A stretch of DNA of 64,000 nucleotides from Parcubacteria bacterium C7867-006. GTDB lineage: Bacteria > Patescibacteriota > Minisyncoccia > Phycocordibacterales > DATDWN01. Of the stretch, positions 1 through 34,811 are shown one piece after another. The stretch covers positions 133,618-197,617 of the forward strand of contig LFCP01000004.1 of assembly GCA_001189155.1 (NCBI GenBank). Reading direction: 5' to 3'. The notes under the pieces were generated by a model that did no database searches, had not been told where the DNA came from, and was given only the letters and a program-made list of their open reading frames with translations. Positions within the stretch are counted from its first letter, which is position 1; each line of letters opens with the position of its first letter. The translations under genes were made by a program, and so were the position numbers.

Positions 1-1550
1 CTGTTCCAATGAATGGAAGCATTTTCTTTGCGATATTCCAAACCTTCATGTGTGGTCCAAACGAGACACCTTATTACGGTGATTATCCATCAGATTATTT
101 TGACTTTATTATTATAGATGAATGCCATCGTGGCGGTGCGAATGATGAATCTAACTGGCGTGGCATATTGGAGTATTTTTCTTCTGCCGTTCAACTAGGT
201 CTTACTGCTACCCCAAAAAGAAAAGACAATGTCGATACATACAAATATTTCGGTGATCCAGTTTATATTTACTCCCTGAAGGAAGGTATAAATGACGGGT
301 TCCTAACTCCTTTTAAAGTAAAAAGAGTTCAAACAACTCTAGATGAGTATATCTATACTTCAGATGATGAGATTGTTGAGGGCGAAGTTGAAGAAGGAAA
401 AATATATAAAGAGGACGACTTTGCTAGAGGAAATATAAAAATAATTGAAAGAGAGGAGTATAGGGTTAAGATTTTTTTGAAAGAAATAAACCAGAATGAA
501 AAAACTATCGTATTTTGTGCTACACAAGGTCATGCCTTGCTAGTTCGGGATTTGATAAATAGAAACAAAGAAAGTAAAGATACAAACTATTGCGTGCGGG
601 TTACAGCAAACGACGGTTTTCTTGGTGAACAATATCTTCGTGAGTTTCAAGATAACGAAAAGACTATTCCAACTATTCTAACCACTTCTCAAAAACTTTC
701 TACTGGTGTTGATGCTAGAAATATAAGGAATATTGTTTTGATGCGCCCCGTAAATTCAATGATTGAATTTAAACAGATCATAGGTCGTGGGACTCGTCTT
801 TTTGATGGTAAAGAGTATTTCACTATTATTGATTTTGTTGATGCCTATAAGAACTTTCTTGATCCTGAATGGGATGGTGAGCCAATTGATAAAACAACAG
901 AGCAAGGACCAATAGAACCTCCAGGACCTAGAGGACCAAGAGTTCCACCTCCTTTACCACCAGAGCCAATACAGAAACTCAAGATAAAATTGCGAGATGG
1001 TAAAGAAAGAGAAATTCAACACATGGTTAGAACATCTTTTTGGAGTGCAGATGGAAAACCAATTTCTGCTGAAGAATTTTTGCAAAACATGTTCGGAGTG
1101 TTACCTGAATTTTTTAAAGATGAGAAAGAACTTAGAGTAATTTGGTCAAATCCTCAAACAAGAAAAGTATTTCTCGATAAACTTGGAGAAATGGGTTTTG
1201 GCAAGGAACAATTAGAATCTGTACAAAAAATAATTAATGCTGAAAACAGTGACCTTTTTGATGTTCTTGGATATATCGCTTTCGCATTGCAACCAATTAC
1301 TCGCCTAGAAAGAATCCAAAATACTAAGTATGATATTTTTGATGGTTTAGACATTAAGCATAGAGAATTCATTGAGTTCGTACTTGCTAAATACCAAGAA
1401 AGAGGTGTTGAGGAGCTGGATGAGGAGAAATTACCTCAACTATTAAAGCTAAAGTATGACGCTATTTCTGATGCCGAGAAAAACTTGGGGAGCGTGGACA
1501 AAATACGGACAGCATTCTTCGATTTTCAAAAGTTACTTTATTCAAAATAA
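1..1550 (+). CDS. hsdR: Type I restriction enzyme R subunit (HsdR), C-terminal part; 5' end lies outside the window
   Basis: Helicase motifs DECHRG (motif II) and LTATP (motif III). The tail is EcoEI_R_C-like. Between them is a Pro-rich linker, GPIEPPGPRGPRVPPPLPPEP. The ORF is open to the window edge. Confidence 0.75.
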   Translation, partial: VPMNGSIFFAIFQTFMCGPNETPYYGDYPSDYFDFIIIDECHRGGANDESNWRGILEYFSSAVQLGLTATPKRKDNVDTYKYFGDPVYIYSLKEGINDGFLTPFKVKRVQTTLDEYIYTSDDEIVEGEVEEGKIYKEDDFARGNIKIIEREEYRVKIFLKEINQNEKTIVFCATQGHALLVRDLINRNKESKDTNYCVRVTANDGFLGEQYLREFQDNEKTIPTILTTSQKLSTGVDARNIRNIVLMRPVNSMIEFKQIIGRGTRLFDGKEYFTIIDFVDAYKNFLDPEWDGEPIDKTTEQGPIEPPGPRGPRVPPPLPPEPIQKLKIKLRDGKEREIQHMVRTSFWSADGKPISAEEFLQNMFGVLPEFFKDEKELRVIWSNPQTRKVFLDKLGEMGFGKEQLESVQKIINAENSDLFDVLGYIAFALQPITRLERIQNTKYDIFDGLDIKHREFIEFVLAKYQERGVEELDEEKLPQLLKLKYDAISDAEKNLGSVDKIRTAFFDFQKLLYSK

Positions 1551-1562
1551 TTTATTATTTTT

Positions 1563-2504
1563 ATGACACTATTTAAAAATCAAAATGAAAAGATCAGTAT
1601 AGTTAAGGATATGCCTTTTTCTTTGGAAAAAGACCTTCAAAAACTTACGGAAAAAAATATCAGGGAGATATTCGGATTAGAATTTGTTTCAAGTGAGTTT
1701 CAGCATAATGATTTAAGAATAGATACGTTAGCTTTTGATAGAAACCTAAACACTTTTGTTGTTCTTGAGTATAAAAGAGAAAAGAGTTTTAGTGTTATAG
1801 ATCAGGGATTTGCCTATCTATCGCTAATACTAAACAATCAAGCTGAATTTGTCTTGGAATTTAATAAAAAATTTGAAGAAAAAAGAGGAAAGGCAGATTT
1901 TGATTGGTCACAAATGAGGGTACTATTTCTAACAAGATCGTTCACCCCGCATCAATTAGAGGCAATAAATTTTAAAGACCTACCTATTGAGCTTTGGGAA
2001 GTTACAAGATATGAAGGAGATTTAATTCAGTACTCTCAAGTCAAAAAATCTGGTGCAAAAGCTTCTATTGAAAGTTTAGGTATAAATAATAATGATGTCA
2101 AAAAAGTTTCTAGAGAAGTAAAAACCTATTCTGAAGAGGATTATTTAAATAGTAAACCTGACGGTGTTGGTAAAAAGATATTTGAGTTATTGAAAGAAAA
2201 AGTATTAGTTATAGATTCAAGTATAGTCATGAACCCAACAAAAAGTTATATTTCATTCCAATTGCCTAATAACTGGAGAAATATTTTTTACTGTCATGTG
2301 TATGGAAGTAAGTTAAAAATTGATTTCACTAGATCAGAGCCAAAAGATTTTAATGATCCTGAAAAGAAAGTGTTTTACAATGAAAACAGTGTTAAACACT
2401 ATAATCAGCATATATCATATATAGAAATAGATAACGAGAAAGGTTTGGATTATGGGTTGTATATAATACAGCAAGCATATGACAAGTTTATGAAAGAAAA
2501 TTAA
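1563..2504 (+). CDS. PD-(D/E)xK-like nuclease domain protein (hypothetical)
   Basis: N-terminal D...VVLEYK (D / ExK) motif typical of PD-(D/E)xK nucleases. It lies immediately downstream of hsdR. The C-terminal domain is unknown. Confidence 0.4.
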   Translation: MTLFKNQNEKISIVKDMPFSLEKDLQKLTEKNIREIFGLEFVSSEFQHNDLRIDTLAFDRNLNTFVVLEYKREKSFSVIDQGFAYLSLILNNQAEFVLEFNKKFEEKRGKADFDWSQMRVLFLTRSFTPHQLEAINFKDLPIELWEVTRYEGDLIQYSQVKKSGAKASIESLGINNNDVKKVSREVKTYSEEDYLNSKPDGVGKKIFELLKEKVLVIDSSIVMNPTKSYISFQLPNNWRNIFYCHVYGSKLKIDFTRSEPKDFNDPEKKVFYNENSVKHYNQHISYIEIDNEKGLDYGLYIIQQAYDKFMKEN

Positions 2505-2509
2505 AACTT

Positions 2510-3190
2510 ATGAAAACATTATATTTCGATATTGAAACATTGCCAGCAGATGAATCTTCATATAACAAGTTAAAATATCTTTTTGATAAAAAGAAAGAAA
2601 AGAAGTCTAAAGTCAAAAAGATAGAAGATGAGGAGATTGTTGATTCTAGTTCAAAAAGTCTTGATGATTTTATCAATAAAACAGGTTTAGATGGTGCGTT
2701 TGGTAGAGTTCTTTGTATTGCCTATGCTATTGATGATGGAGAGTTACAAGTTTTGTGTAATGACGGAAACGAAAAGAAAACCATAGAGGAATTCTGGGAT
2801 GTAGCAAAAGATTGTGATTTATTTGTTGGTCACAACATTATGTCTTTTGATTTTAAATTTATAATGCAACGATCTATTGTTTTAGGAGTCAAACCAACTT
2901 GGCAGACTCGAGAAATGAGATCTCCAAAGTATCTATCATTTGCAAGATATAGAAATAATCCAATATTCGACACTATGTGTGAGTGGGTTGCTTGGGGTGA
3001 GAATAAAAACTCATCACTAGAGCATGTTGCTCTAGCATTGGGAATTCCAACACCTAAAGATGGAGTTGATGGTTCAAAAGTAGCTGAGGTTTATAAAGAA
3101 GAAGGAGGTATTCAAAAAATTTGTGACTATTGTAAAAGAGATGTTGGTACTACTCGAGCTGTATACAAAAGAATGACTTTTGAAAATTAA
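2510..3190 (+). CDS. RNase H-like 3'-5' exonuclease (PolB exonuclease-domain-like, COG3298-type)
   Basis: Motifs YFDIETLP, GHNIMSFDFKFI and CKRDVGTTRAVY match the DEDD exonuclease pattern. Confidence 0.55.
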   Translation: MKTLYFDIETLPADESSYNKLKYLFDKKKEKKSKVKKIEDEEIVDSSSKSLDDFINKTGLDGAFGRVLCIAYAIDDGELQVLCNDGNEKKTIEEFWDVAKDCDLFVGHNIMSFDFKFIMQRSIVLGVKPTWQTREMRSPKYLSFARYRNNPIFDTMCEWVAWGENKNSSLEHVALALGIPTPKDGVDGSKVAEVYKEEGGIQKICDYCKRDVGTTRAVYKRMTFEN

Positions 3191-3235
3191 TTTAAGCCTA
3201 AAAATTTTCTATACTTTTCAAAATACTAGACCTAC

Positions 3236-3251
3236 AAAAAACTGACGAGGA
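3236..3251. repeat. Left arm of a 15-bp inverted repeat (aaaaactgacgagga) flanking the DUF1508 gene and its leader
   Basis: The reverse complement occurs at 3593..3607 (tcctcgtcagttttt). Confidence 0.5.
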
Positions 3252-3263
3252 ATTGCCTAGACA

Positions 3264-3449
3264 CTAGTTTGTAGAATCTACAATCACAGCATCCCAAGCA
3301 ATTTGCTTGACACGAGATGCAGAATTTATAGCACCTTGCTTAGAAACATAAGCTTCTGAAGCAGCAACTTTTTCGCCGTTTCCAGCAACTAGTCGCCATC
3401 GGTAATAACCTGCCGTGTCTTTGTAAATAACAAATATTGTTTTGTTCAT
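3264..3449 (-). CDS. DUF1508 (YegP-like) domain protein
   Basis: 61 aa; YKDTAGYYRWRLVAGNGEKVAASEAYVSKQGA is the typical YegP repeat. Confidence 0.55.
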   Translation of the reverse strand: MNKTIFVIYKDTAGYYRWRLVAGNGEKVAASEAYVSKQGAINSASRVKQIAWDAVIVDSTN

Positions 3450-3592
3450 ACAGTTTAATCTTGTTAACTCTAATAATGTTTAGGGACCGACCAGCGTAGA
3501 GCGCTCCCCGAATAAAAACCGAAATATTCAGTTTCTATTCGGGAGGTCTAGTGGCAGTGTGATCTAAACAAAAGAGAGGGGTCCAAGGTATA

Positions 3593-3607
3593 TCCTCGTC
3601 AGTTTTT
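3593..3607. repeat. Right arm of the 15-bp inverted repeat
   Basis: Pairs with 3236..3251. Confidence 0.5.
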
Positions 3608-3715
3608 CAAAGGCCTGTTTTGATAGAATTTTACACCTTCCCTTTTATGGTGTCTACTGTGATCCGGACGGGGGGTAAAGTGTGAACTACTTGTTATTTT
3701 TGTTAATATGGTCAC

Positions 3716-4357
3716 ATGAATACAATCTGGCTAGACAAAGTTTCTGAAAATATTTTCCCTTTGAGTTTGGAGCAAAAAGATATCAAGAAGGCTCTTACAG
3801 AATGGATATATGAAGGTAATTTTTACGATCTAGAAACTCCCTCAGAACTGTGTCAGCTTTGTAATCATCCTGACATTCGATATCAGTTTGAAATTCGAAA
3901 TAAAAATACCAGCAGTACTTTATTAATTGGTTCAGAATGTGTAACTAGATTTGGCGGTATTGTTGTGGTTGATGGGCAAGGAAATACAGTGGAAATAAAA
4001 GAAGCTAAGAAAAGAGTAGCAAAAGATAAAAACAAACTTATAAGAGATGCTGAAACAAAAAGTGTCATCAATACTCTTGTTACTTTAGGATCCTACGACC
4101 ACGAGTTCGACATCTCAAACTTTTTAAAATATTACCAAGAAAGAATGGCTTTCACACCTAATCAATTATCAACTATTCTTTGGAGAATAGAGAAGCATAA
4201 AGTTTACTTCAATAAGTCTCATTTTAAATTAACAATAAAAAGAGAGAGGGAGAAACAACAGCTTTTGAATATGGAAGATTGGAAACTAAAAAAGCTATTT
4301 CCTTGTCTATCGTCATCTCAAAAGAAATTCATTCAAGACGCTACTAATAATAAATAG
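3716..4357 (+). CDS. Hypothetical protein
   Basis: 213-aa ORF with a CQLCNH...GSECVTRFG Cys/His cluster. No family recognised. Confidence 0.4.
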   Translation: MNTIWLDKVSENIFPLSLEQKDIKKALTEWIYEGNFYDLETPSELCQLCNHPDIRYQFEIRNKNTSSTLLIGSECVTRFGGIVVVDGQGNTVEIKEAKKRVAKDKNKLIRDAETKSVINTLVTLGSYDHEFDISNFLKYYQERMAFTPNQLSTILWRIEKHKVYFNKSHFKLTIKREREKQQLLNMEDWKLKKLFPCLSSSQKKFIQDATNNK

Positions 4358-4398
4358 TCGTGTTTAGCTTTTTTAAGAAAAAAAGAAATTTTGTTGCC

Positions 4399-5085
4399 AT
4401 GAAGCTGGTTATAACTGATCATCTAAAGCAACTAGAAGAAAAAAGGACTTCTATCCCTGAAGATGTTTTTGATGTCACTAGGTTTTCTTTAGAAGAACTA
4501 CTGAGCACATTTGAGTCGATGGATACTTTGATTAAGAAAACTGACTACGAAGGTTGCATTAAGTTATCTAGGTCCATACTCGAAAATTCTGTAAACCTTA
4601 GATATATCTACAAAGAGGATACCGAAAAACGTGCTAAAAACTTTAAATTGAAATCAGTAAAGGAACTCTCAAGAAAGTTTGATTCTTTGGAAGAACGTAC
4701 ACCTGAGGCAAAAGAGATGAATGACTACTTTCAGGAGCTTCTTAAGGATTACACGCCTGAGAAAAATATACGTGAAAAATTCAAAGCCGTTAATTCTGAC
4801 GCTACATACATAAGATCATATAGGCGACTTTCGGAATTCATTCACCCTGCATATCGCCCAAAGAAAATAGATTTTAATGAAAACAGACCGTATGTTCTGG
4901 AAATGAAAAGAACTGTTAGATCAGATACATGCATTGTGGCTCTAATGGCTCTAGAAGTGGTTTGTCTTAAATATGACTTGGATGGAGGAATCGTTATGGT
5001 TGATGAACCGGGCTACATAGGAAAGGTATTTTTTGCCACAAACCCAAAGAAAGCATCGGAGGATGTAAAAGACCTTAAATTCTAG
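4399..5085 (+). CDS. Hypothetical protein, possibly HEPN-like (Rx4-6H motif RRLSEFIHPAY)
   Basis: ATG at 4399 is preferred over the GTG at 4360. The helical sequence carries an R-x5-H-x2-Y motif. Confidence 0.35.
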   Translation: MKLVITDHLKQLEEKRTSIPEDVFDVTRFSLEELLSTFESMDTLIKKTDYEGCIKLSRSILENSVNLRYIYKEDTEKRAKNFKLKSVKELSRKFDSLEERTPEAKEMNDYFQELLKDYTPEKNIREKFKAVNSDATYIRSYRRLSEFIHPAYRPKKIDFNENRPYVLEMKRTVRSDTCIVALMALEVVCLKYDLDGGIVMVDEPGYIGKVFFATNPKKASEDVKDLKF

Positions 5086-5280
5086 ATACCCAAAGTAGTG
5101 TCGCATTTGTCGCTTTTGACCTATTCCGAAGAGGGTCAAAATGATAAGATAAAAGTAATCAAAAAAGCCTTGTGGGGCTTGATGGGTAAATATACGAGAC
5201 CGAGGAGGCCAGCCCTGAAAGCAATATTGATAACAAAAAATCACAGATGCAAATCTGGGATTTTTTGTTATTATGGGGTT

Positions 5281-5913
5281 ATGAAAATTACTAAACTAGG
5301 ACACTGTTGTTTACTCATAGAAACCAAAGGTAAAATAATTCTTACTGACCCAGGGAGTTATACCGTAGAAGCTCATTCTACTCTCGAAAATATTGACTAC
5401 ATTCTGTTTACACACGAGCACCAAGATCATTATCATATCGACTCTTTGAAAGTCATTATCAGAAACAACCCGAATGCTCTAGTATTTTCAAATAGTTCCG
5501 TGAGTGAACTATTAACTCAAGAAGGAATACCACACACTAAAATCAATCATGATCAGGATTTTGACCTAGGAGGTGTTCCAGTTCTAGGTTTTGGAGAGAA
5601 GCATGCACAGATGCATAGCTCAATTCCACCCTCATCAAATCTTGGATTTTTTATTGATAACAAACTCTGGTACCCAGGTGATGCATTCACTAACCCAGAA
5701 CGACCAGTTGAAGTTTTAGCCCTTCCCGTCTCTGGACCTTGGATGAAACTTAGTGAAGCTATTGATTATGCTCTTTTACTCAAACCAAAATTAGCTTTTC
5801 CCGTACATGACGGCACAAGATTTGGTTCTGCTCATGTTCTTCCTGGTAAGGTTCTTACTCAAAATGGAATTGAATTTGTTGTTATGATAGAAGGTGATGC
5901 TAAAGAATTCTAA
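5281..5913 (+). CDS. MBL-fold metallo-hydrolase
   Basis: HEHQDH motif (HxHxDH); start chosen at MKITKLGHCCLLIE. Confidence 0.7.
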   Translation: MKITKLGHCCLLIETKGKIILTDPGSYTVEAHSTLENIDYILFTHEHQDHYHIDSLKVIIRNNPNALVFSNSSVSELLTQEGIPHTKINHDQDFDLGGVPVLGFGEKHAQMHSSIPPSSNLGFFIDNKLWYPGDAFTNPERPVEVLALPVSGPWMKLSEAIDYALLLKPKLAFPVHDGTRFGSAHVLPGKVLTQNGIEFVVMIEGDAKEF

Positions 5914-5914
5914 T

Positions 5915-6244
5915 ATGAAATACCTCAAATTCGCCCCACACCTCGTCGAAAAAATCCTAATTGGAGAAAAAGTTTCTACCTGGAGACTTTTTGATGACAA
6001 AGACCTAACTCTCGGCGACGAATTAGCATTCATCAATAAAGAAACTAGCGAAGAGTTCGGTACAGCAAAAATTACTGAACTAAAAATAAAAACTTTAGGC
6101 ACAGTGACTGACGAAGACTACTTTGGTCAAGAAAAGTATCCATCGGATGAAGAAATGTACAAAAACCTTCGAAAATATTATGGAGATAATGTTAGTGAAA
6201 ATACCGAAGTGAAGATAATAAATTTTGATTTCAAACCAATATAA
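5915..6244 (+). CDS. ASCH domain protein
   Basis: Small PUA-like protein with KILIGEKVSTWRL; an alternative start is at 5894. Confidence 0.45.
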   Translation: MKYLKFAPHLVEKILIGEKVSTWRLFDDKDLTLGDELAFINKETSEEFGTAKITELKIKTLGTVTDEDYFGQEKYPSDEEMYKNLRKYYGDNVSENTEVKIINFDFKPI

Positions 6245-6247
6245 ATC

Positions 6248-6730
6248 ATGCTCCCAATCCCCCTCACAGAAAAATATCTCGAGGCAGCAGTCAAAATGGT
6301 GGATGAAGTTTTTCCTCAAGACCTTGATGCAATCTGGAACCCAGAGAAATCTCTACCACTCAGTCTGCGACCTCAAAGCGAATTGAAGCAAGATGTGTTT
6401 GTTGACTATTGGATTGTACTTAACGACAATGATGAAATTATTGGAGTAACCGGTATGTACAGACTCAAAGAAGATCCGGAAGATGTTGTTTGGTTAGGTT
6501 GGTACTGCATTCGAGCAGACCAGAGAGGCAGAGGACTTGGACGAGAACTGTTGAACTGGACGATCGACAAAGCAAAAGAGAGAGGATTCAAGAAAATGAA
6601 ACTATACACGTCTACAGACCCAAACGAAGCGGCAGCACAAATACTATACGACAAACTTGATTTCAAAATAATTGGAGAAGATGAGGGTGACGGCATTCAT
6701 AAGACATTATATCGACAGAAGTTGTTATAA
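6248..6730 (+). CDS. GNAT family N-acetyltransferase
   Basis: RGRGLGRELL acetyl-CoA binding motif. Confidence 0.7.
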   Translation: MLPIPLTEKYLEAAVKMVDEVFPQDLDAIWNPEKSLPLSLRPQSELKQDVFVDYWIVLNDNDEIIGVTGMYRLKEDPEDVVWLGWYCIRADQRGRGLGRELLNWTIDKAKERGFKKMKLYTSTDPNEAAAQILYDKLDFKIIGEDEGDGIHKTLYRQKLL

Positions 6731-6753
6731 TTAAATTAGCCATGCCCTCCCCT

Positions 6754-6790
6754 AAAAAACGATAGGCCCGTCCGAAGACGGGCCTATTTA
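6754..6790 (-). terminator. Intrinsic terminator (GGCCCGTC-cgaa-GACGGGCC plus a U run on the minus strand)
   Basis: GC-clamp hairpin followed by a T run; it closes the GC-rich two-gene cassette. Confidence 0.6.
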
Positions 6791-6804
6791 GTGCCGACTA
6801 ACTG

Positions 6805-7188
6805 CTACGTGAGAAGGCGCAAGAGCTTCCTCAAACCATCGCGAAACCTCCTGCGAGTCATCCGGTCGACCGAGGTGAGTTCCTCGGGAAGTATCGTTCC
6901 GCTCACCCTCGACGAAAACGAAAAACCATGAATCCCCAGGAACCGTTCAACAGCAATGATCACTGAACGACGACACGAGCCAAGGAGTGGGTAGACCTCG
7001 ATGATCATCTTCACCTCATCCTTGGTCAGACCCTTTGCGACTCGGTAGGGACTGAAGAACATGTGAAGCACTCCAGCCTCCTTCTTGGAGAGCCGATAGC
7101 GCTTCCTGTAGCGATCCAGAACACCGTCTTGCGCGTTCCGGAGTCTTGCTTCCGAAAATTTCTTCAACTTGATCACTCGCTCCTCCAT
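6805..7188 (-). CDS. Hypothetical protein (GC-rich cassette A, downstream gene)
   Basis: 127-aa ORF in a segment of about 55% GC; it overlaps the upstream ORF by 1 nt. Confidence 0.4.
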   Translation of the reverse strand: MEERVIKLKKFSEARLRNAQDGVLDRYRKRYRLSKKEAGVLHMFFSPYRVAKGLTKDEVKMIIEVYPLLGSCRRSVIIAVERFLGIHGFSFSSRVSGTILPEELTSVDRMTRRRFRDGLRKLLRLLT

Positions 7189-7189
7189 T

Positions 7190-7540
7190 CTAGCTCTGAA
7201 TCTGCCCGACTTCAGCAGCCATGGCCTCCTCGTGTTTCCTCATCTCATCGGCTGCTGCTCGGAAGAACACCTTCAGGCCATCAGGATCCTTCTCCTCGCG
7301 AATCTCATCAGCAACCCAGGAGAGATCGCTCGACGAAAGCCCGAGATCCGGCAGAGCAGTCTTTCCGCTCTTCAGGATTTCTCTAGCTTTCTCGAAACGT
7401 TCCCTTCTCGCATGTAATTCACGACGAGCCAGCCTGAGACCTCCGGGAAGGAACTCGTTCAGGTAGGTGCGCACGGCCTTGCCCACACACATGTGAGCCA
7501 CTCCGCGAAGCAACTCATCTGTTAGTTGGTTGTCGCTCAT
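7190..7540 (-). CDS. Hypothetical protein (GC-rich cassette A, upstream gene)
   Basis: 116-aa helical ORF in GC-rich DNA. Confidence 0.4.
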   Translation of the reverse strand: MSDNQLTDELLRGVAHMCVGKAVRTYLNEFLPGGLRLARRELHARRERFEKAREILKSGKTALPDLGLSSSDLSWVADEIREEKDPDGLKVFFRAAADEMRKHEEAMAAEVGQIQS

Positions 7541-7639
7541 TTGGTACCCCCGGACACAACTATATAATTATCAAAACATAAATCAAGTATTAATTTAACC
7601 TTGATTTCAAATCACTCTGAATAAGTTATAATACCTCCT

Positions 7640-8200
7640 ATGCAAACATCAATCATTATCCATGGTATGCCATCAAAACAGGAATACCTGAACCCCGAGT
7701 TCCCTTCTGCATCAAATGCACATTGGTTCCCTTGGATACAAAAACAACTAACAATTAAAGGTATTTTGGCTCAAACTCCAGAAATGCCAGAGCCATATGA
7801 CCCTGACTATAAAAAATGGAGTGAGGTTTTTGAACAATTCAAATTAAATCAAGACACAATACTCATCGGACATAGTTGTGGAGGTGGATTTCTTGTTAGA
7901 TGGCTTGGCGAACACAAGGTAAAAGTCGGAAGGGTCGTGCTTGTTGCACCATGGATAGATCCTAAACACGAATACCCTAAAATGTTTGACTTTGAAGCGG
8001 GAGATATTTCTGACAGAGCTGACAGCGTGCATCTGTTTATATCTTCGGATGATGATAAAGAAGAGCTAGATTCAGCTGAAATTTTAAAAGCTAAAATTTC
8101 AAATCTTAAAGTACATCATTTCAACGACAAAGGTCATTTTATAACAGACCACATGAAGACTAATGAGTTTCCAGAATTGCTCGAGATCGTTTTAAGTTAA
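7640..8200 (+). CDS. Alpha/beta hydrolase (YdeN/RBBP9-like serine hydrolase)
   Basis: GHSCGG nucleophile elbow; 186 aa. Confidence 0.55.
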   Translation: MQTSIIIHGMPSKQEYLNPEFPSASNAHWFPWIQKQLTIKGILAQTPEMPEPYDPDYKKWSEVFEQFKLNQDTILIGHSCGGGFLVRWLGEHKVKVGRVVLVAPWIDPKHEYPKMFDFEAGDISDRADSVHLFISSDDDKEELDSAEILKAKISNLKVHHFNDKGHFITDHMKTNEFPELLEIVLS

Positions 8201-8217
8201 CTTGCTATAATACCCTA

Positions 8218-8727
8218 ATGGAATCAGCCCCAAAACTATTTAATCCCGAAACAAGTCCCCTCCGCGAAGCTTATGAACTACTGGGAGCAACAACCCCACT
8301 AGAGCTACACCGTCTTTATAGTGAACAAGACCAGATACTAATGAAGTCTGGTAAGTGGGATTATGAAAATCCAGACCTTGTAGTTAACAGAGTGAAAGAA
8401 ATTTTAGAATCAGTTAAACCTGGAGAACTGACAGAAGATGAAATGGAGTGGAGAAACGAAATACTTTGGTTCTGGTATCATCACGCTATTAGCTGTGCTA
8501 TCGGAAGATACAAAGACAAAGAAGCAGCTAAAAAATATTCTGCACACGCATTGGCAATTCAATCAGAAAATCATCCTAACAAAATTACTAAACTCTTGGA
8601 TTTATTAGTAAACGACAAACTTGAAGAAGCAGAAGCTTGGGCAAAAGCAATACAAGAAGAACCAGAGAAAGAAACTGCGCAATTTTTATTAGAGGAATAT
8701 AGATCTGGAAACTTTTTTCTAAACTAA
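8218..8727 (+). CDS. Hypothetical protein
   Basis: 169-aa ORF in native AT-rich composition. Confidence 0.4.
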   Translation: MESAPKLFNPETSPLREAYELLGATTPLELHRLYSEQDQILMKSGKWDYENPDLVVNRVKEILESVKPGELTEDEMEWRNEILWFWYHHAISCAIGRYKDKEAAKKYSAHALAIQSENHPNKITKLLDLLVNDKLEEAEAWAKAIQEEPEKETAQFLLEEYRSGNFFLN

Positions 8728-8728
8728 C

Positions 8729-9175
8729 ATGCTCCCACTCGAAATATTCTACATTTATTTCTCTCCATATACAGCACATGCAATCGAAATCGATGGGGTT
8801 GTCTATCCTACTCTCGAACATGCATATCAGTGCGCAAGATACACTGACCCCAAAATAATTGCTGAAATAATTTCAGCAAAAAGCCCAGTCAAAGCTTGGA
8901 AGGCTTCTTCAAAATATAAACACCTGCAAATACCTGAATTCAAAACTGGAGAACACAAATTAAAAATTATGGAAAAGTTAATGAGACTGAAAACAGAACA
9001 ACATGAGGAAATACAAAAAGCTCTCATTGACTCTGGAGATTTAGAAATAGTAAAACATATCGTGACTCCTCCACCAGGAGATAGTTTCTGGGACGATGGT
9101 GAAGATGGTAAGGGGCTAAACCATATAGGCAAAATCTGGATGAAAATAAGAGAAGGACTCATTGACGCGACATAA
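8729..9175 (+). CDS. NADAR (YbiA-like) domain protein
   Basis: VYPTLEHAYQCARY and FWDDGEDGKGLNHIGKIWMKIRE match the NADAR/DUF1768 pattern. Confidence 0.6.
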   Translation: MLPLEIFYIYFSPYTAHAIEIDGVVYPTLEHAYQCARYTDPKIIAEIISAKSPVKAWKASSKYKHLQIPEFKTGEHKLKIMEKLMRLKTEQHEEIQKALIDSGDLEIVKHIVTPPPGDSFWDDGEDGKGLNHIGKIWMKIREGLIDAT

Positions 9176-9232
9176 TTTAAGTGTTAATTTAACGAACAGA
9201 TTTGCCCTACCTACCTGGGCAGAAAGGATCCG

Positions 9233-9508
9233 ATGAATCAGCGGGCTATCAGAAAGCTTCCATTTCCACCGGCGAGTCACTTCACATTGGAAATGGTCAG
9301 GCAGATCAAGGCAATCCCTGATGAGGAAATCAGTTACTCCGAACAAGAGATTGTCTGGATGGAACTGGCAATTCAGAATCTTGAGTACATGATTGCCTGT
9401 GCGAAATCACTCGGCATCAAGACGACCGAGATGGATGAGCACAAGGCTCTGTACGAGGCAGTCATTACCAAGAACAATAACCTGACCGCCTCAGACCGCT
9501 CACGCTAA
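9233..9508 (+). CDS. Hypothetical protein (GC-rich cassette B)
   Basis: 91-aa ORF; AAAGGA RBS 4 nt upstream; raised GC. Confidence 0.4.
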   Translation: MNQRAIRKLPFPPASHFTLEMVRQIKAIPDEEISYSEQEIVWMELAIQNLEYMIACAKSLGIKTTEMDEHKALYEAVITKNNNLTASDRSR

Positions 9509-9555
9509 ATTTTGCGTGGGCGGTCAATTGTTTTATATTTTGCTATAATAACTCT

Positions 9556-9852
9556 ATGAAAAAACCATTTTTACATGCCTTAGCAGCGGCACTATACATA
9601 GTTGCTATAGTCCTCATCGCAGAGAGAGTTGGTAATGCATTAAAAAACCAACCTGACACCATAGTCATTCCAATGACCATGCTCAGTCTTTTTGTTCTAT
9701 CCGCAGCCATCATGGGATACATTTTTCTATCTGAACCACTACAGTTACTTATTGAAGGAAAGAAAAAGGAAGCCATCGCTTTCTTCTCAAAAACTGTTGG
9801 TTTCTTTGCGTGTTTTGTTTTAATTTACACAATAATTCTTTTCCTCGTCTAA
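9556..9852 (+). CDS. Small membrane protein
   Basis: 98 aa with three hydrophobic helices. Confidence 0.4.
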   Translation: MKKPFLHALAAALYIVAIVLIAERVGNALKNQPDTIVIPMTMLSLFVLSAAIMGYIFLSEPLQLLIEGKKKEAIAFFSKTVGFFACFVLIYTIILFLV

Positions 9853-9930
9853 ACTCAGTTTAATAACAATTTAATAAATCTTATCATTATTCGTCTTCTG
9901 CAGTATACAAATTAGCGATATAATATTTAT

Positions 9931-10212
9931 ATGAAAAATAAAAACATAGTTATTTCTCTATCAATAATATTTGCATTAGCATTAATAGGTTATTTCTTTT
10001 TTTACAACAAATCAGCACAAAATACAAAAAACCCAAACTCAACAGCAAAAATAAATATAGAAGCCGTTTGCCAAGGTGCACTAGCATATATGACATTCCC
10101 TGACTCAAAAAGTGCAGACATTTATGTAGAGGAGTGTATAGAAGGTAAACATCCAGAAGTAATAGAACGCTATAAAGCATCTTTGAATCTTGATGCTGGA
10201 GTAGCTATATAA
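9931..10212 (+). CDS. Small secreted/membrane-anchored protein
   Basis: 93 aa with an N-terminal hydrophobic segment. Confidence 0.4.
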   Translation: MKNKNIVISLSIIFALALIGYFFFYNKSAQNTKNPNSTAKINIEAVCQGALAYMTFPDSKSADIYVEECIEGKHPEVIERYKASLNLDAGVAI

Positions 10213-10248
10213 TTTAAATCTCATACAAGATTTTGGTATAATAACTAA

Positions 10249-10587
10249 ATGAAAATATTCACACATTTGCTAGTTTCTACACTAGCCATAATCATAGCAA
10301 CATACATTATTCCTGGAGCAACGATAACTCTCTCAAGTGCTATCGTGCTAGCGGCTGTTCTAGGAGCAATAAATGTTTTCATCAAACCAGTAGTAAAAAT
10401 CATCGCCCTACCGATCACAATACTAACGCTTGGATTCTTTTCTCTCGTTATAAATACTCTATTTATTATTCTAGCTTCAAAAATAGTTCCTGGTTTCTAT
10501 GTATCAGGTTTCTGGCCAGCCTTTTGGTTCTCAATTGCTCTATCACTCATAAACGCTTTTTTCAATCTATTCCAAGATAAAGATTAA
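10249..10587 (+). CDS. DUF360/YvlD-like 4-TM membrane protein (phage holin family IV-like)
   Basis: 112 aa with four TM segments and the YvlD pattern. Confidence 0.45.
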   Translation: MKIFTHLLVSTLAIIIATYIIPGATITLSSAIVLAAVLGAINVFIKPVVKIIALPITILTLGFFSLVINTLFIILASKIVPGFYVSGFWPAFWFSIALSLINAFFNLFQDKD

Positions 10588-10612
10588 AGGATCTCCAAAA
10601 AACTTGAAAAAC

Positions 10613-10641
10613 AAAAGCCCCTAACGGGGTTTTTGTTTTTT
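10613..10641 (+). terminator. Intrinsic terminator
   Basis: agcccctaacggggttttt hairpin plus a T run. Confidence 0.6.
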
Positions 10642-10655
10642 GATATACTAACTAA

Positions 10656-11348
10656 ATGACAGAAGAAAAAGTAATTCCTAAAACAAACTTGATTGGTGTA
10701 ATTCTCCAGATCGCTTCTGTATGGGTTCTATCTGACATTGGATACTATATTTTTCTTCCGGCACTTGGTTTTAATGGTGGGTACAATGTTCATCCAGTAC
10801 AAATAACAATCTACTACCTCATATGGACCATAATAGCCATATTTGCCTTCAAAGATATTTTAAAAGATAAAGTAGTTCTAGAAAAAAGACTAGGGACATA
10901 TATTCCACTTGTGGTTGGAAATATTTTTATAGTAATTTACGTATTTTATATACTTCCACTACTTCCAACTATAACATGGACTCCGCCATGGATGCCTCCA
11001 TCAGAGTTACTGAATGCAACAACTTGGTACTTTCTACCGAAATCAATAGAGATATTTCTACAACAAATCCTTCTTCTCGCTCTTGTGATTTCTTTTCTCG
11101 ATAACCAATACAAATTCAAAACAACAGCAATATGGTGCGCACTTCTGTTTGGTGGCAGTCACCTACTGCTAGTTTTTAGTGGAGGTTTTATGTATGCAAC
11201 AGTTTTCACAATAATAGCAGTTGTTGCATCTTTTATATTCACATATCTTTTGCTCGAAGTAAGAAATGGTTTTTTGTATTCATATTTTCTACACTGGATT
11301 TTCTATGCATTTGTCGTTGTTGTAACAAAACTAATTTTCAAAGTTTAA
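10656..11348 (+). CDS. Polytopic membrane protein (possibly CPBP/CAAX-protease-like)
   Basis: Six or more TM segments; FGGSHLL motif. Confidence 0.35.
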   Translation: MTEEKVIPKTNLIGVILQIASVWVLSDIGYYIFLPALGFNGGYNVHPVQITIYYLIWTIIAIFAFKDILKDKVVLEKRLGTYIPLVVGNIFIVIYVFYILPLLPTITWTPPWMPPSELLNATTWYFLPKSIEIFLQQILLLALVISFLDNQYKFKTTAIWCALLFGGSHLLLVFSGGFMYATVFTIIAVVASFIFTYLLLEVRNGFLYSYFLHWIFYAFVVVVTKLIFKV

Positions 11349-11350
11349 TT

Positions 11351-11385
11351 AAAACAAAACCCCCTTTCGGAGGTTTTGTTTTAAT
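11351..11385. terminator. Bidirectional hairpin terminator
   Basis: aaaacaaaaccccctttcggaggttttgtttt; it serves the converging plus-strand gene and the minus-strand small ORF. Confidence 0.5.
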
Positions 11386-11396
11386 TTAGTCTCGAA

Positions 11397-11489
11397 TTAC
11401 TTTTTTCCCACCTGACATCCACAAGAACATGTACCGTCTTCATTTGTATGAACGTGACCACAAGCTTCGCACTTCATTTCATCTGACAT
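11397..11489 (-). CDS. 30-aa Cys-rich peptide MSDEMKCEACGHVHTNEDGTCSCGCQVGKK (mini zinc-ribbon-like); not in the ORF track
   Basis: Two Cys knuckles (CxxCGH and CxCGC); ends at the shared terminator. Confidence 0.3.
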   Translation of the reverse strand: MSDEMKCEACGHVHTNEDGTCSCGCQVGKK

Positions 11490-11574
11490 GTATGTTTTTT
11501 GGTTATGTCTAATATATTCGACCCTTTATTATTTTACCATTTATAATCTCCAAACCTCAATGATTATTTTATAT

Positions 11575-11603
11575 TTGACATTATAGTTAAAATGTGATAT
11601 TAT
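11575..11603 (+). promoter_or_regulatory. Sigma70-like promoter TTGACA-17-TATTAT with extended TG
   Basis: Consensus -35 and -10 boxes read directly, 40 nt upstream of the GT2 start. Confidence 0.55.
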
Positions 11604-11642
11604 TGTACTAGAAGAACATTGAAACCTTTCACAGGAGAGACG

Positions 11643-12653
11643 ATGTCTACGACTGAAGGCCTAGAGGCCCCGCTCGTCACGATACTCGTCCCCTGCTATC
11701 AGTACGGACGGTATCTACGCAATTGTCTGGAAGGAATTTTCGCCCAGACAATCATCGACCAAATATCGGTTGAAATCATCGTCATCAACGATGCATCAAC
11801 CGACAACACTGACGCTGTTATGCGTGAGTTCACGGACCCGCGTATTCACTACATCCGCCACGACAGAAACCGTGGACTCTGCTACACACTGTCAGAAGGA
11901 CTCACCCTCGCAAGAGGTAAGTACTTTACTCGGATTGACGCGGACGACAGATGGAAACCTCACTTTCTGGAAGTAACACTTCCTGAGCTTGAGAGATACC
12001 CTGATGTTGCTCTCGTCTTCGGTGATGTTGCCCATGTTGATGAACAAGGAAACATCATCAACGAGGAAAGTACAATCGCTCGCTCACTTGAGGTTCACGG
12101 CGATCGTGATTTCAAGGGAGACAGATTTCTTTCACAAGTCGGCGAATGCACAATCGGCACCGCTGGTGTGATAGGAAGAACCGAAGCTTGGCGTAAGGGC
12201 CTACCTTTCCCCAAATGCTTTACTTGGGAGTCCCCGTCTGACTGGTGGCTGAACATCATGGCCATCAGAGATGCAGACGTGTACTACAAGAAGGGTATTC
12301 TTGGGGAATACCGCATGCACAGTGCGAGTATGACCCACCAACAAGGTAGTGTTGATGCGGTCGATATTGAACAGACCACCATCGGCGCTATCAATGAAGC
12401 GTTTAGCGGGGTAAATCTGAAAAGAGAACACCGCCTTGCGCGACGCATGATCTACGCCAACGCATGGACCACCCTCGGGAATATCAATTTCGAAAAAAAC
12501 CGAGGTAAAGATTCGAGGAGGTGCTACGCCAACGCAGTGCTCTGGCGACCGGACTATGTTTTAAGAAAGTCCATCGCTCGACACTTCCTGTCGAGTCTCC
12601 TGCCTCGGAAACTGTACGAGAAAATAAAGAAAGGGGTGAAGAAAATGTTCTGA
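11643..12653 (+). CDS. Family 2 glycosyltransferase (GC-rich cassette C)
   Basis: ILVPCYQ...IIVINDASTDNT...RIDADD GT2 motifs; AGGAGAG RBS 4 nt upstream; about 52% GC. Confidence 0.75.
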   Translation: MSTTEGLEAPLVTILVPCYQYGRYLRNCLEGIFAQTIIDQISVEIIVINDASTDNTDAVMREFTDPRIHYIRHDRNRGLCYTLSEGLTLARGKYFTRIDADDRWKPHFLEVTLPELERYPDVALVFGDVAHVDEQGNIINEESTIARSLEVHGDRDFKGDRFLSQVGECTIGTAGVIGRTEAWRKGLPFPKCFTWESPSDWWLNIMAIRDADVYYKKGILGEYRMHSASMTHQQGSVDAVDIEQTTIGAINEAFSGVNLKREHRLARRMIYANAWTTLGNINFEKNRGKDSRRCYANAVLWRPDYVLRKSIARHFLSSLLPRKLYEKIKKGVKKMF

Positions 12654-28076: not shown

Positions 28077-28137
28077 ACGAAAGTCAAAACATGACTTTCT
28101 CTCCGGCATGCAAAAATCCCCTTTCGGGGATTTGTTG

Positions 28138-28219
28138 TGCCGGAGGAGGGACTCGAACCCTCACGCCTTGCGACACACGATTTTGAGTCGTGCGCGTATA
28201 CCAATTCCGCCACTCCGGC
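28138..28219 (-). tRNA. tRNA-Leu (anticodon CAA)
   Basis: Cloverleaf folded by hand: acceptor GCCGGAG/CTCCGGC, anticodon loop CTCAAAA, long variable arm, T-loop TTCGAGT. Confidence 0.8.
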
Positions 28220-28298
28220 ATAAAACCAATATAACATATTTTAATATAAAGTTCAGGGCCGACAAACACTAGCGCTTGTCGGACCCTGACTGCAGTCA

Positions 28299-28814
28299 TT
28301 ACCCCTTCTTCAGAACTAATCTTGGCAAATTCTGAGTAATGGGTAGAGACACAAGTGTCTTTGCTTTGTACAACCTGAAAGCTTCTTGGCGATTGCCATC
28401 AAGAAGATTCGAGATCCTTATGCCGAGTCTCGAAACAGCCTGAGGTTTCGCTTGGGTGGTCGAAGGATAGCACAGAAAGGTAGCATCGTCGTGCACAGGC
28501 TCTGCTCCATATCCAAGTGTACGCAAAGCAGTGCACAAACAGAATGCAAGCCTCTCAGCCCTAGCAAACACAGGGCTAGTTGCGTATCCAATTGGATGAA
28601 TTTCGTTCGCGAGCCAGACGATGCTGAAGTCATCTTTCAGCTTACCGTCAACCTTTCTCTTTGAGGCAACTTGCGCTGCGTTGAAGACCTTCTTCTCGAG
28701 CTTAAAATTCAGCTGGAGAGATGGTTGAAGTCGAAGCTTGTGCCACTCCTTCACTCCCACTTCAACAAACTTGTTCCATTCATCGCTACCAACTGCTCGC
28801 ACCCAGTATTTCAT
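28299..28814 (-). CDS. Hypothetical protein (GC-rich cassette G, adjacent to tRNA-Leu)
   Basis: 171-aa ORF in DNA of about 52% GC; no family recognised. Confidence 0.4.
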   Translation of the reverse strand: MKYWVRAVGSDEWNKFVEVGVKEWHKLRLQPSLQLNFKLEKKVFNAAQVASKRKVDGKLKDDFSIVWLANEIHPIGYATSPVFARAERLAFCLCTALRTLGYGAEPVHDDATFLCYPSTTQAKPQAVSRLGIRISNLLDGNRQEAFRLYKAKTLVSLPITQNLPRLVLKKG

Positions 28815-28868
28815 TTCGCAATCTCCTTGCCGAAATAACCTGTCCGTTGTACAGTTTGTCTTATTAAA

Positions 28869-29795
28869 ATGAAAAAATCAAGTTTTAAAAATAATCCAAT
28901 AAAACCTAAAATACTAGTTATCCTTGGTCCAACAGCCACAGGCAAAAGTGACCTAGCTGTTAAACTCGCTAAAAAATATAATGGTGAGATTATTTCTGCT
29001 GATTCAAGACAAGTATACAAAGGTTTAGATATCGGCACAGGAAAAATCACTAAAAAAGAGATGCTAGGGATTCCGCACTACATGCTAAACGTCATATCTC
29101 CTAAAAAAGTATTCTCTGTTTCTGATTTTCAAAAACTAGCTAATGCAAAAATAGAAGAAATAATTTCAAAAGGAAAACTCCCTATAATAGTTGGAGGAAC
29201 AGGATTCTATATTCAATCAATCGTAGATGGAATAGTTCTACCAGAAGTTCCTCCAAATAAAAAACTCAGAAAAGAATTAGAGAAAAAAAATATTGATGAG
29301 TTAGTTTTAATGCTAGAAAAAATTGATAAAGAAAGACTAAAAAATATAGATAAAAACAACCCTGTACGACTGATAAGAGCTATTGAAATAGCAGAAAAAC
29401 TTGGCTCTGTGCCAAAGATAAAAACACAAAAAAGTAACTATGATTTTATACAAATCGGTCTTAACCTCCCAGAGGGAGAAATAAAAGAAAAAATACACAA
29501 AAGACTCCTAGCAAGAATTAAAAAAGGAATGATGAAAGAAGCAGAGAAAATTCATAAAAATGGCTTATCCTGGAAACGTATGCGAGAACTAGGACTTGAG
29601 TATCGATACCTGGCAGATTTTCTGGAAAAAATAATAGACCAAAAAGAACTCATTAATAAACTAGATTCCGAGATATATCATTACAGCAAAAGACAGATGA
29701 CTTGGTTTAAAAAAGATAAAAAAATTAAATGGTTCAATCCAAAAAATTTATTAAATATAGAAAAATTTGTTAATAACTCATTGATTAATAACTAG
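28869..29795 (+). CDS. miaA: tRNA dimethylallyltransferase
   Basis: P-loop GPTATGKS and DSRQVYKGLDIGT. Confidence 0.85.
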   Translation: MKKSSFKNNPIKPKILVILGPTATGKSDLAVKLAKKYNGEIISADSRQVYKGLDIGTGKITKKEMLGIPHYMLNVISPKKVFSVSDFQKLANAKIEEIISKGKLPIIVGGTGFYIQSIVDGIVLPEVPPNKKLRKELEKKNIDELVLMLEKIDKERLKNIDKNNPVRLIRAIEIAEKLGSVPKIKTQKSNYDFIQIGLNLPEGEIKEKIHKRLLARIKKGMMKEAEKIHKNGLSWKRMRELGLEYRYLADFLEKIIDQKELINKLDSEIYHYSKRQMTWFKKDKKIKWFNPKNLLNIEKFVNNSLINN

Positions 29796-29827
29796 CAATA
29801 TAGTAAAAATAAAAAAGGAGGACCGAC

Positions 29828-29929
29828 ATGCTCGAGATCCTTGGTAAATCAGTTCTCGCTCTGGTAGCGTTCTGGCCATTCTGGGTTACTCCACTGGCGA
29901 TAGTCTTCGCCTGCAGGCGAACTCAGTAG
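29828..29929 (+). CDS. 33-aa hydrophobic peptide MLEILGKSVLALVAFWPFWVTPLAIVFACRRTQ (GC-rich mini-cassette H)
   Basis: Perfect AGGAGG RBS 6 nt upstream; GC-clamp terminator directly downstream; single TM helix. Confidence 0.35.
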   Translation: MLEILGKSVLALVAFWPFWVTPLAIVFACRRTQ

Positions 29930-29948
29930 AACGACTCCACAGTTGTAT

Positions 29949-29984
29949 GCCCCGTGACCTACCTAGGCACGGGGCACCGTTTTG
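29949..29984 (+). terminator. Intrinsic terminator GCCCCGTG...CACGGGGC-accgTTTT
   Basis: Read directly. Confidence 0.55.
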
Positions 29985-30021
29985 CCTAAAGGTAAAAAAT
30001 CCTGTAGGATTGAACAAATAA

Positions 30022-30092
30022 GGGGGGTTAGTTAAGTGGTATAACTACGGTCTCCAAAACCGTCGTCGGGAGTCCGATTCTTCCACCCCCCG
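30022..30092 (+). tRNA. tRNA-Trp (anticodon CCA)
   Basis: Acceptor GGGGGGT/ACCCCCC, anticodon loop CTCCAAA, T-arm GGGAG-TCCGATT-CTTCC. Confidence 0.75.
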
Positions 30093-30107
30093 CATATTTT
30101 TATAAAA

Positions 30108-30136
30108 CAAAAAACCGCTTGTAGCGGTTTTTTGTT
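30108..30136. terminator. Bidirectional terminator (aaaaccgct tgt agcggtttttt)
   Basis: The hairpin lies between converging tRNA-Trp and rpmG. Confidence 0.55.
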
Positions 30137-30313: not shown

Positions 30314-30419
30314 AGTTTTAATAAATTACCAGAAAAGAGACTAAAATGCAAGGTTTATAAAGTAAAAAGCCGTCCGAGTAAAAGTAACCTCGGACAGGCC
30401 TTTCACTCTTGGACAGACT

Positions 30420-30626: not shown

Positions 30627-30710
30627 CGCGGCCTCCAAAATTGTTCCAACTATTATGTTAGTTCTAAAAAAGTTACTAGTCAACAAAAATCCCCTTGCGG
30701 GGAATCTTTG

Positions 30711-31165: not shown

Positions 31166-31200
31166 AACTAGATTATAACAGAGTATTAGTCTGTCATCAA

Positions 31201-34784: not shown

Positions 34785-34811
34785 TTGTGATTATAATAAC
34801 ATAACTAATTA

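Follow-up and report, generated by a model that had tools for sequence, protein, structure and literature searches.

Genes at the locus

The window, a stretch of 64,000 nucleotides from a Parcubacteria (CPR) genome, starts within the gene for the R subunit of a type I restriction-modification (RM) system. The approximately 515 amino acids present are the C-terminal two thirds of an R subunit of the EcoAI/FtnUII (type IB) family. They align to positions 246-768 of the 768 in NCBIfam model NF046051 with 540.8 bits, the cut-off of 550 bits being set for the whole protein and HsdR here being a fragment; Pfam finds EcoEI_R_C, ResIII and Helicase_C domains, and PADLOC finds REase_I (E 7.6e-88). The N-terminus of HsdR lies upstream of the window, and its nuclease domain, hsdM and hsdS are presumably there too.

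The hsdR gene is followed on the same strand, with a gap of 12 bp, by the gene for a member of the PDC-S18 family (S18 in what follows) and, 5 bp beyond the end of that, by the gene for an exonuclease. Because the gaps are so short and no terminator lies between, the three genes are probably on one transcript. Further along are a DUF1508 gene on the other strand within an inverted repeat, a gene of an unannotated family and one encoding a DUF5677 protein (Table 1). A preliminary description of this DNA had been read from its letters, and the partial hsdR, the other ORFs, the single orientation and gap sizes, the motifs and the 15-bp inverted repeat that it listed are all real and located where it put them.

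Table 1. Features in the first 5,085 nucleotides of the window and the basis for each assignment
Feature	Position	Strand	Basis
hsdR C-terminal fragment	reading frame open from base 3 to 1550	+	NCBIfam, Pfam, PADLOC
PDC-S18 member, 313 aa	1563-2504	+	PADLOC HMM, Pfam, alignment, AlphaFold/Foldseek
Stand-alone DEDDy 3'-5' exonuclease, PolB-exonuclease type, 226 aa, intact	2510-3190	+	Pfam PF10108
Perfect 15-nt inverted repeat AAAAACTGACGAGGA	3237-3251 and 3593-3607 (or 3594-3608)	n/a	sequence search
DUF1508 (HVO_2922-like) protein, 61 aa	3264-3449	-	Pfam PF07411
213-aa protein, unannotated family, invariant CxxC...GSxC	3716-4357	+	homolog alignment
DUF5677 protein, 241 aa from the most likely start, GTG 4360	4360-5085	+	Pfam PF18928, homolog N-termini

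The nuclease encoded after hsdR

Before its family was recognized, the 313-aa protein was noted for a D...ExK nuclease motif, and its pairing with the exonuclease could not be assigned to a named system. The nuclease is a PADLOC candidate, PDC-S18. The match to PDLC04945 (E 2.4e-92) is full-length, with residues 1-306 on model positions 1-301 of 302, and PDLC04946 also matches (E 1.1e-41). The N-terminal domain is a NucS/RecB-like PD-(D/E)xK nuclease with E22, E30, D54, E69-x-K71 and Q81xxxY85, and in an alignment of 18 homologs D54...E69-Y-K71 and Q81xxxY85 are invariant. The motif first noted is genuine, and S18 is predicted to be an active DNA endonuclease. Approximately residues 190-313 form a DUF5655 domain (Pfam, E 5e-6), which we infer to be a binding or gating module. 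The AlphaFold model has a pLDDT of 86.7, and the top Foldseek matches to it in the PDB are the EndoMS/NucS structures 5gke and 2vld, with an E value of 3e-4 and low TM scores of 0.22-0.36. The Pfam family NucS_C stays below threshold with the S18 of the window even at E 0.1, though a distant relative from another locus, L148, does match it (E 6e-6).

The family is large and widely scattered, with more than 3,500 clustered proteins at E ≤ 1e-5, and it is patchy and mobile, being found in bacteria and archaea, in unrelated phyla, on plasmids and on phage-like contigs. An RM-like ORF is present no more than two genes away in 23 of 78 S18 genome loci (about 29%), as against 1 of 75 loci of the exonuclease (one seed set). 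Counted by domain, the neighbors in the 78 loci include ORFs with ResIII (20), HSDR_N (9), N6_N4_Mtase (10) and N6_Mtase (6), and the RM partners are mostly of the ATP-dependent translocating types (I, III, ISP/IIG). On Acinetobacter plasmids S18 is inside the type I operon in the order hsdS-S18-hsdR, while the closest HsdR relatives of the window, those of L006 and L082 at 72% identity, are preceded by hsdS and followed by an S18 homolog, giving hsdS-hsdR-S18. In IMG/VR, S18 is on 17 contigs and has type I genes upstream in 11 of them. The RM neighborhood of the nuclease is therefore a general link and not an accident of this genome.

Could S18 nevertheless be a housekeeping repair nuclease, acting alone or with the exonuclease in EndoMS/NucS-like mismatch repair, and be beside RM genes by chance? 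On that view it would serve a lineage whose set of repair genes is reduced. The best structural matches of S18 are repair endonucleases, EndoMS and NucS, and the repair genes for uracil-DNA glycosylase (UDG) and Pif1 are among the usual neighbors of the exonuclease family. Yet the patchiness and mobility just described, extending from Acinetobacter plasmid type I operons and viral contigs to archaea, the RM link in nearly a third of S18 loci, the lack of a NucS_C match for the S18 of the window and the low TM scores all speak against it, and we regard a repair role for S18 as very improbable.

PDC families are candidates picked out on RefSeq genomes because their genes lie inside type I RM, BREX or DISARM loci (Payne et al., bioRxiv 10.1101/2024.01.29.577857). 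The standing of S18 as a candidate defense gene is one of guilt by association, and a literature search gave no mention of PDC-S18 and nothing useful on DUF5655. What makes the family matter is that it is widespread and tied to RM, and that D54, E69, K71, Q81 and Y85 as its active-site residues now give a concrete hypothesis. Defense candidates from cultured genomes, moreover, reach into CPR bacteria.

The exonuclease and the question of a common unit

The assignment of the next ORF to the PolB-exo2 type of DEDD exonucleases has held up. Pfam DNA_pol_B_exo2 (PF10108) matches it with 69.3 bits (cut-off 24; E 4.8e-19), the catalytic residues D7, E9, D114, Y207 and D211 are invariant in the alignment, and in a PDB search its profile finds family B polymerases of archaea, matching them in their exonuclease domain. 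PADLOC has no match for it. Homologs with 55-65% identity are present on many contigs, and their neighbors are mixed (UDG, YgjP, DUF5654, Pif1, ribosomal L5 and EF-Tu), the contexts being mostly repair or housekeeping. A phage origin of the gene was considered and rejected, as just six IMG/VR loci have a homolog and all of these are at most 34% identical.

The close spacing of the nuclease and exonuclease genes had been taken as the sign of a functional unit. Their linkage was examined starting from S18 as well as from the exonuclease, by tblastn and by HMMs made for this analysis, and no conserved co-location in other genomes was found. Among 78 other S18 loci, L028 alone has the exonuclease gene behind S18; S18 adjoins the exonuclease gene in 1 of 82 exonuclease loci (L148), where it is convergent, and a co-directional S18 is present in none of the 82. 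S18 and the exonuclease as a general unit are rejected on these counts. A relative of the exonuclease, in L085, is 89% identical in amino acids to that of the window, but its flanks are unrelated and DNA similarity ends at the ends of the gene. Since the gene upstream of so close a relative is unrelated, the S18-adjacent exonucleases form no separate clade.

There is a narrower version, in which the two proteins would be a two-enzyme module on ATP-dependent RM translocases in some Patescibacteria, the NucS-like endonuclease nicking or cutting the target and the DEDDy exonuclease widening the break and degrading the DNA. In L028, an RM helicase-methylase gene is followed by S18 and, after a 1-bp gap, by the exonuclease gene; S18 is 44% and the exonuclease 40-46% identical to their counterparts in the window, and the upstream RM system is different, being type ISP-like. 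The order RM, S18, exonuclease thus occurs twice, in divergent sequences and with two RM types, with the two genes in the same direction on both occasions. At L148 an S18-like gene and a helicase gene are beside the exonuclease homolog, and at L083 the exonuclease gene is 7 bp behind the gene for AbiP2, another single-gene defense. The repeats of the adjacency at L028 and L148 are together slightly more than we would expect by chance. Set against them are the counts given above, the single RM-like neighborhood among 75 exonuclease loci, the S18 homologs of plasmids and other phyla that have no exonuclease, and the unrelated gene upstream of the 89%-identical exonuclease of L085. A module of this kind is unlikely, and it is quite improbable that some Patescibacteria have a cut-and-degrade pair of PDC-S18 and PolB-type exonuclease docked on ATP-dependent restriction translocases. 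If they did, the exonuclease would be a recruited housekeeping enzyme by which a nick or single cut leads to full degradation of foreign DNA.

The genes farther downstream

The DUF1508 gene matches PF07411 with 51 bits (cut-off 22; E 9e-14) and NCBIfam NF041908 with 47 bits, which is under the cut-off of 90. As had been described, it is between 15-bp inverted repeats; the pair is perfect and encloses, besides the gene, 145 nt upstream of it. It is the sole such pair in the window and has no further copy there, chance expectation being 0.28 matches even with two mismatches allowed. A non-coding RNA or a mobile element around DUF1508 was considered and rejected, as Rfam gave no match and the repeat has no additional copy. 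The intergenic RNA fold around the gene is unremarkable (z -0.57).

The uncharacterized 213-aa Cys/His ORF of the preliminary description has true relatives, its family comprising 551 representative clusters at E ≤ 1e-3. C46xxC49 and C75 are invariant in the alignment, and CxxC...GSxC is a probable zinc ribbon; the C-terminal half is helical. No match to the protein was found in Pfam, PADLOC or the PDB. The family is present in 13 IMG/VR loci, and in one member a CapP/IrrE-like peptidase is fused in front.

The last ORF, which Pfam PF18928 (DUF5677) matches with an E value of 3.8e-15, had been described as a 228-aa protein starting at 4399 and having an Rx5HxxY, HEPN-like motif. The motif is conserved, with R143 of R143-x5-H149-xx-Y152 kept in 90% or more of the sequences and no variation at H149, but the start was probably misplaced. 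As its homologs have the common N-terminus MFxFFKK, translation most likely starts at GTG 4360, 2 bp past the 213-aa ORF. The model is all-helical (pLDDT 90.1) and finds no significant match among PDB and BFVD folds; a PDB profile search was empty, and neither profile nor fold methods gave a HEPN match, so the assignment to HEPN is left without their support despite the conserved motif. A literature search gave no mention of PF18928.

The 2-bp spacing brought about by the corrected start raises the possibility that 3716-5085 is a two-gene toxin-antitoxin or abortive-infection cassette, with DUF5677 as a HEPN-like RNase. In keeping with this are the conserved R-x5-H motif, the abutting upstream gene of each DUF5677 homolog examined, and the occurrence of the 213-aa family in phage contigs and once as a fusion with a CapP/IrrE-type peptidase. 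However, the genes that precede the DUF5677 homologs bear no relation to the 213-aa family and no DUF5677 gene is near the 213-aa homologs, so that a conserved pair is rejected. The absence of a HEPN profile or fold match also tells against the cassette, as does an Enterococcus study in which a DUF5677 ORF was tested and is absent from the five ORFs reported protective. We consider the cassette unlikely. The DUF1508, 213-aa and DUF5677 genes have no conserved linkage to one another or to S18.

Interpretation and relation to known systems

The reading that we favor, and hold to be reasonably probable, is that 1-2504 is the 3' end of an EcoAI-family RM operon with an appended S18 gene, and that the exonuclease and the remaining genes are outside this module. 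The most likely role of S18, we infer, would be as a second, co-expressed nuclease layer of defense beside RM, perhaps acting alone on invading DNA or perhaps as the backup for a blocked RM enzyme, as is PrrC inside EcoprrI. The exonuclease gene is a conserved gene of Patescibacteria next to this variable region, probably transcribed by read-through from the RM-S18 operon, and its product probably serves DNA repair or replication. The DUF1508, CxxC and DUF5677 genes, and those that follow to about 12.6 kb, would be unrelated accessory cargo of the variable region; in this vicinity a GC-rich patch at 6750-7550 gave no match in a plasmid comparison. An antiphage defense island had been proposed for the whole, and the part of the proposal that stands is that the nuclease after hsdR is of a defense type and RM-linked, while the other genes have no conserved co-occurrence. 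The "island" is in the present case a variable accessory region and not a system. What is new is a CPR member of the already catalogued, RM-embedded PDC-S18 candidate, and the other genes are passengers.

Among known systems, the PDC-S18 family is the one whose HMM the protein matches over its full length; the difference is in the gene being appended after hsdR instead of lying between hsd genes, and in the host being a CPR bacterium, RefSeq genomes having supplied the candidates. With NucS/EndoMS (5gke, 2vld) S18 shares the RecB-like PD-(D/E)xK core having D, ExK and QxxxY, but it has a C-terminal DUF5655 domain in place of the NucS architecture, and its context is RM loci and not repair. The exonuclease is an ordinary member of the stand-alone PolB-type exonucleases (PF10108; COG "predicted PolB exonuclease-like") with all DEDDy residues, and differs from the others in position alone, after the RM/S18 operon. 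HEPN RNase toxins have an Rx4-6H motif, that of HepT being Rx4HxY, and the DUF5677 protein resembles them in its R-x5-H-xx-Y motif and all-helical model, but as searches against HEPN families, PDB sequences and folds gave no match for it, its membership is not established. A parallel in organization is PrrC, whose gene is carried by the hsd operon of EcoprrI; it is an RNase with an ABC-ATPase, has tRNA-Lys as its target and is a backup defense upon blockage of the RM enzyme. S18 is likewise a stand-alone nuclease gene that runs in the direction of a type I RM operon and is found within or next to it, although its protein is unrelated to PrrC.

A nuclease gene behind hsdR

The gene directly after hsdR, encoding a 313-aa protein, is a new CPR member of the already catalogued, restriction-modification (RM)-embedded candidate family PDC-S18, here S18; the product matches PDLC04945 of PADLOC from end to end (E 2.4e-92), with Pfam DUF5655 matching its C-terminal third. 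Its sequence is 100% identical to that of a protein from 'Parcubacteria bacterium C7867-006', which places the window in a CPR/Patescibacteria genome. Payne et al. (bioRxiv 10.1101/2024.01.29.577857) defined the PDC families, 145 'phage defence candidates', by their embedding in loci for BREX, DISARM or type I RM. No mention of PDC-S18 was found in the literature searched. Across 18 aligned S18 homologs (44-79% identity), residues E22, E30, D54, E69, K71, Q81 and Y85 are invariant, giving the D...ExK...QxxxY pattern that marks RecB-type PD-(D/E)xK nucleases. In the PDB, the AlphaFold model (pLDDT 86.7) matches two repair endonucleases best, EndoMS and NucS (5gke, 2vld; E about 3e-4, TM scores low); its C-terminal domain bears a weak resemblance to small alpha/beta proteins, YjbR and SycE among them; and a distant relative in locus L148 directly matches Pfam NucS_C. 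The gene here is intact, encodes a predicted nuclease of RecB/NucS type, and is co-oriented and almost certainly co-transcribed with the type I R subunit.

An ORF check of the window recovered every ORF of the preliminary description at the same coordinates. The hsdR translation also matches EcoEI_R_C, ResIII and Helicase_C of Pfam and REase_I of PADLOC (E 7.6e-88), the HsdR N-terminus and any hsdM and hsdS being outside the window. Gaps of 12 bp and 5 bp separate hsdR from S18 and S18 from the 226-aa exonuclease gene, and since a promoter and terminator scan gave no terminator-like site between them, the three are probably co-transcribed as one unit.

Features of the S18 locus and its surroundings, with positions in the window
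Feature	Position	Strand	Remarks
hsdR fragment	3-1550	+	EcoAI/FtnUII type I R-subunit equivalog, model positions 246-768 of 768, 540.8 bits
S18 gene	1563-2504	+	313 aa
Exonuclease gene	2510-3190	+	226 aa
Inverted repeat	3237-3251 and about 3593-3608		encloses DUF1508 gene and 145 nt upstream, a 372-bp unit
213-aa family ORF	3716-4357		
DUF5677 gene	4360-5085		probably 241 aa, GTG start predicted from homologs
Accessory-type run	5098-12653		MBL-fold hydrolase, ASCH, GNAT, GC patch, serine hydrolase, NADAR (8729-9175), small membrane proteins, GT2
GC-rich patch	6750-7550		53% GC, genome about 35%
Terminator-like hairpin	6762-6787		strong; adjoins orphan ORFs
Two orphan ORFs in GC-rich patch	6805-7188 and 7190-7540	minus	no Pfam match
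GT2 gene	11619-12653		50% GC
Core genes	from 12698		holB, dus, folD, serS
tRNA genes	28137-39167 and 62463-62677		nine; cluster Cys, Leu, Lys, Leu at 38416-39167

Association of S18 with restriction-modification

The S18 family numbers more than 3,500 clustered proteins at E<=1e-5 and is recurrently attached to RM systems. Among the two ORFs on each side of S18 in 78 non-redundant loci, from Patescibacteria, Bacteroidota, cyanobacteria, archaea and others, are ResIII (20), N6_N4_Mtase (10), HSDR_N (9), N6_Mtase (6), Eco57I (6) and Methylase_S (4), together with serine recombinases and reverse transcriptases. When the same RM seed proteins were applied in two phmmer rounds to S18 loci and, as a matched control, to exonuclease loci, an RM-like ORF lay within two genes in 23 of the 78 former (directly adjacent in 14) against 1 of 75 of the latter. 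Type I hsdR or hsdS is upstream in 11 of 17 S18 loci on IMG/VR contigs, and the annotated order on Acinetobacter plasmids is hsdS-DUF5655-hsdR or hsdM-hsdS-HNH-DUF5655-PD-(D/E)xK-hsdR. With such neighbours, it is very improbable that S18 is a housekeeping repair nuclease, for all that its best structural matches are repair endonucleases.

The partners are mostly ATP-dependent translocating enzymes, whether type I, type III (locus L003) or type ISP-like (L028). The type I loci nearest to that of the window, L006 and L082, have an HsdR 72% identical to its own and the order hsdS-hsdR-S18 with additional ATPase genes embedded, a gathering of extra genes in line with the described 'embedding'. In L006 (5049-9988) an AAA_15/AAA_21 ATPase precedes hsdS; in L082 (5326-9996) a ParA-like ATPase lies between hsdS and hsdR.

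The exonuclease

The product of the third gene matches PF10108 at 69 bits and also RNase_H_2, retains all DEDDy residues, and has a profile match to the exonuclease domain of archaeal family B polymerases; PADLOC gave no match for it. Its homologs are numerous at 55-65% identity, with few viral relatives (at most 34% identical), and their neighbours are mixed, including DUF5654 (9), YgjP-like (8), DUF553 (7) and uracil-DNA glycosylase (6) as well as Pif1, ribosomal L5 and EF-Tu. We take it to be a host repair or replication enzyme. Several homologs have short tails whose last residue is aromatic: ...TTPF, ...NTLPF, ...NAVPF and ...GDEF (alignment A4: P0167, P0187, P0233 and L028 10965-11618). 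They recall the tails at the C-termini of SSB and T7 gp2.5, which dock onto replication proteins; the window copy is without one.

The preliminary description had suggested that nuclease and exonuclease form a functional unit, and had named a lack of co-location in other genomes as grounds against this. Such a lack is the rule: tblastn and HMM searches of the 78 S18 loci found the exonuclease in just one other, L028, and co-directional S18 in none of 82 exonuclease loci. The exonuclease is also rejected as S18 partner for its mixed usual neighbours and for locus L085, which has the closest relative of the window copy, 89% identical in protein and 83% in DNA: the similarity there is confined exactly to the gene itself, and an unrelated gene lies upstream.

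Three exceptions give a lineage-specific link a slight remaining probability. L028 (5065-11621), the only other co-directional pair found, has a 1322-aa type ISP-like fusion (T5orf172 nuclease, ResIII helicase, Eco57I methylase), then S18 and, after 1 bp, the exonuclease; in L148 an S18-like gene is convergent with the exonuclease beside a helicase gene; and the CPR contig CBAOJL010000014.1 (L083, 259-6982) carries, one after another, an integrase, a type II RM system (DNA_methylase with R-HinP1I), the reverse transcriptase AbiP2 (PADLOC E 1.4e-175), which an exonuclease homolog of 65% identity follows by 7 bp, and inovirus-like Rep and Zot. Equally, the three could mean that defence genes, and perhaps mobile DNA, tend to insert at the flank of the exonuclease gene. 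A true S18-exonuclease module is improbable. Enzymes of 1175-1322 aa related to the L028 fusion also flank S18 in L016 and L023; a 1175-aa ORF at +1 in L032 was not matched.

Other genes and surroundings

Pfam confirms the DUF1508 gene, and the perfect 15-nt inverted repeat around it is real, the sole such pair in the window and with no further copies there; no Rfam family scores above threshold in this region, and the fold of the upstream intergenic RNA is not unusual.

Searches of Pfam, PADLOC and PDB gave no match for the 213-aa protein. Its family forms 551 representative clusters at 50% identity with an invariant CxxC...GSxC and is present in 13 IMG/VR loci; its fusion in P0310 to a preceding CapP/IrrE-type HExxH metallopeptidase (PDB 7t5t, E 1.4e-9) hints that it may regulate or sense. 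The DUF5677 protein, whose proposed HEPN assignment is unsupported, has homologs that share an N-terminal MFxFFKK extension; this matches the GTG-initiated ORF, so the start given in the preliminary description is probably to be corrected to one only 2 bp beyond the 213-aa ORF. Every homolog has a gene abutting upstream, unrelated to the 213-aa family, and the two families co-occur in no locus compared.

Core genes start only at about 12.7 kb, and so the S18 locus sits within a larger variable accessory region. The GC-rich patch, for which no plasmid match was found, looks like recently acquired foreign DNA. The tRNA genes are ordinary and distant from S18.

Possible role

The earlier defence-island reading holds for the RM-linked nuclease gene; the remaining genes are passenger DNA. 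We lean, with some reserve, towards an RM-attached S18 nuclease as an extra or backup restriction layer, alongside an exonuclease serving host repair or replication. S18 would cut DNA, with DUF5655 perhaps targeting or gating it, and the additional layer so provided would be analogous to PrrC in EcoprrI and to BrxU in BREX (see Payne et al., bioRxiv 10.1101/2024.01.29.577857).
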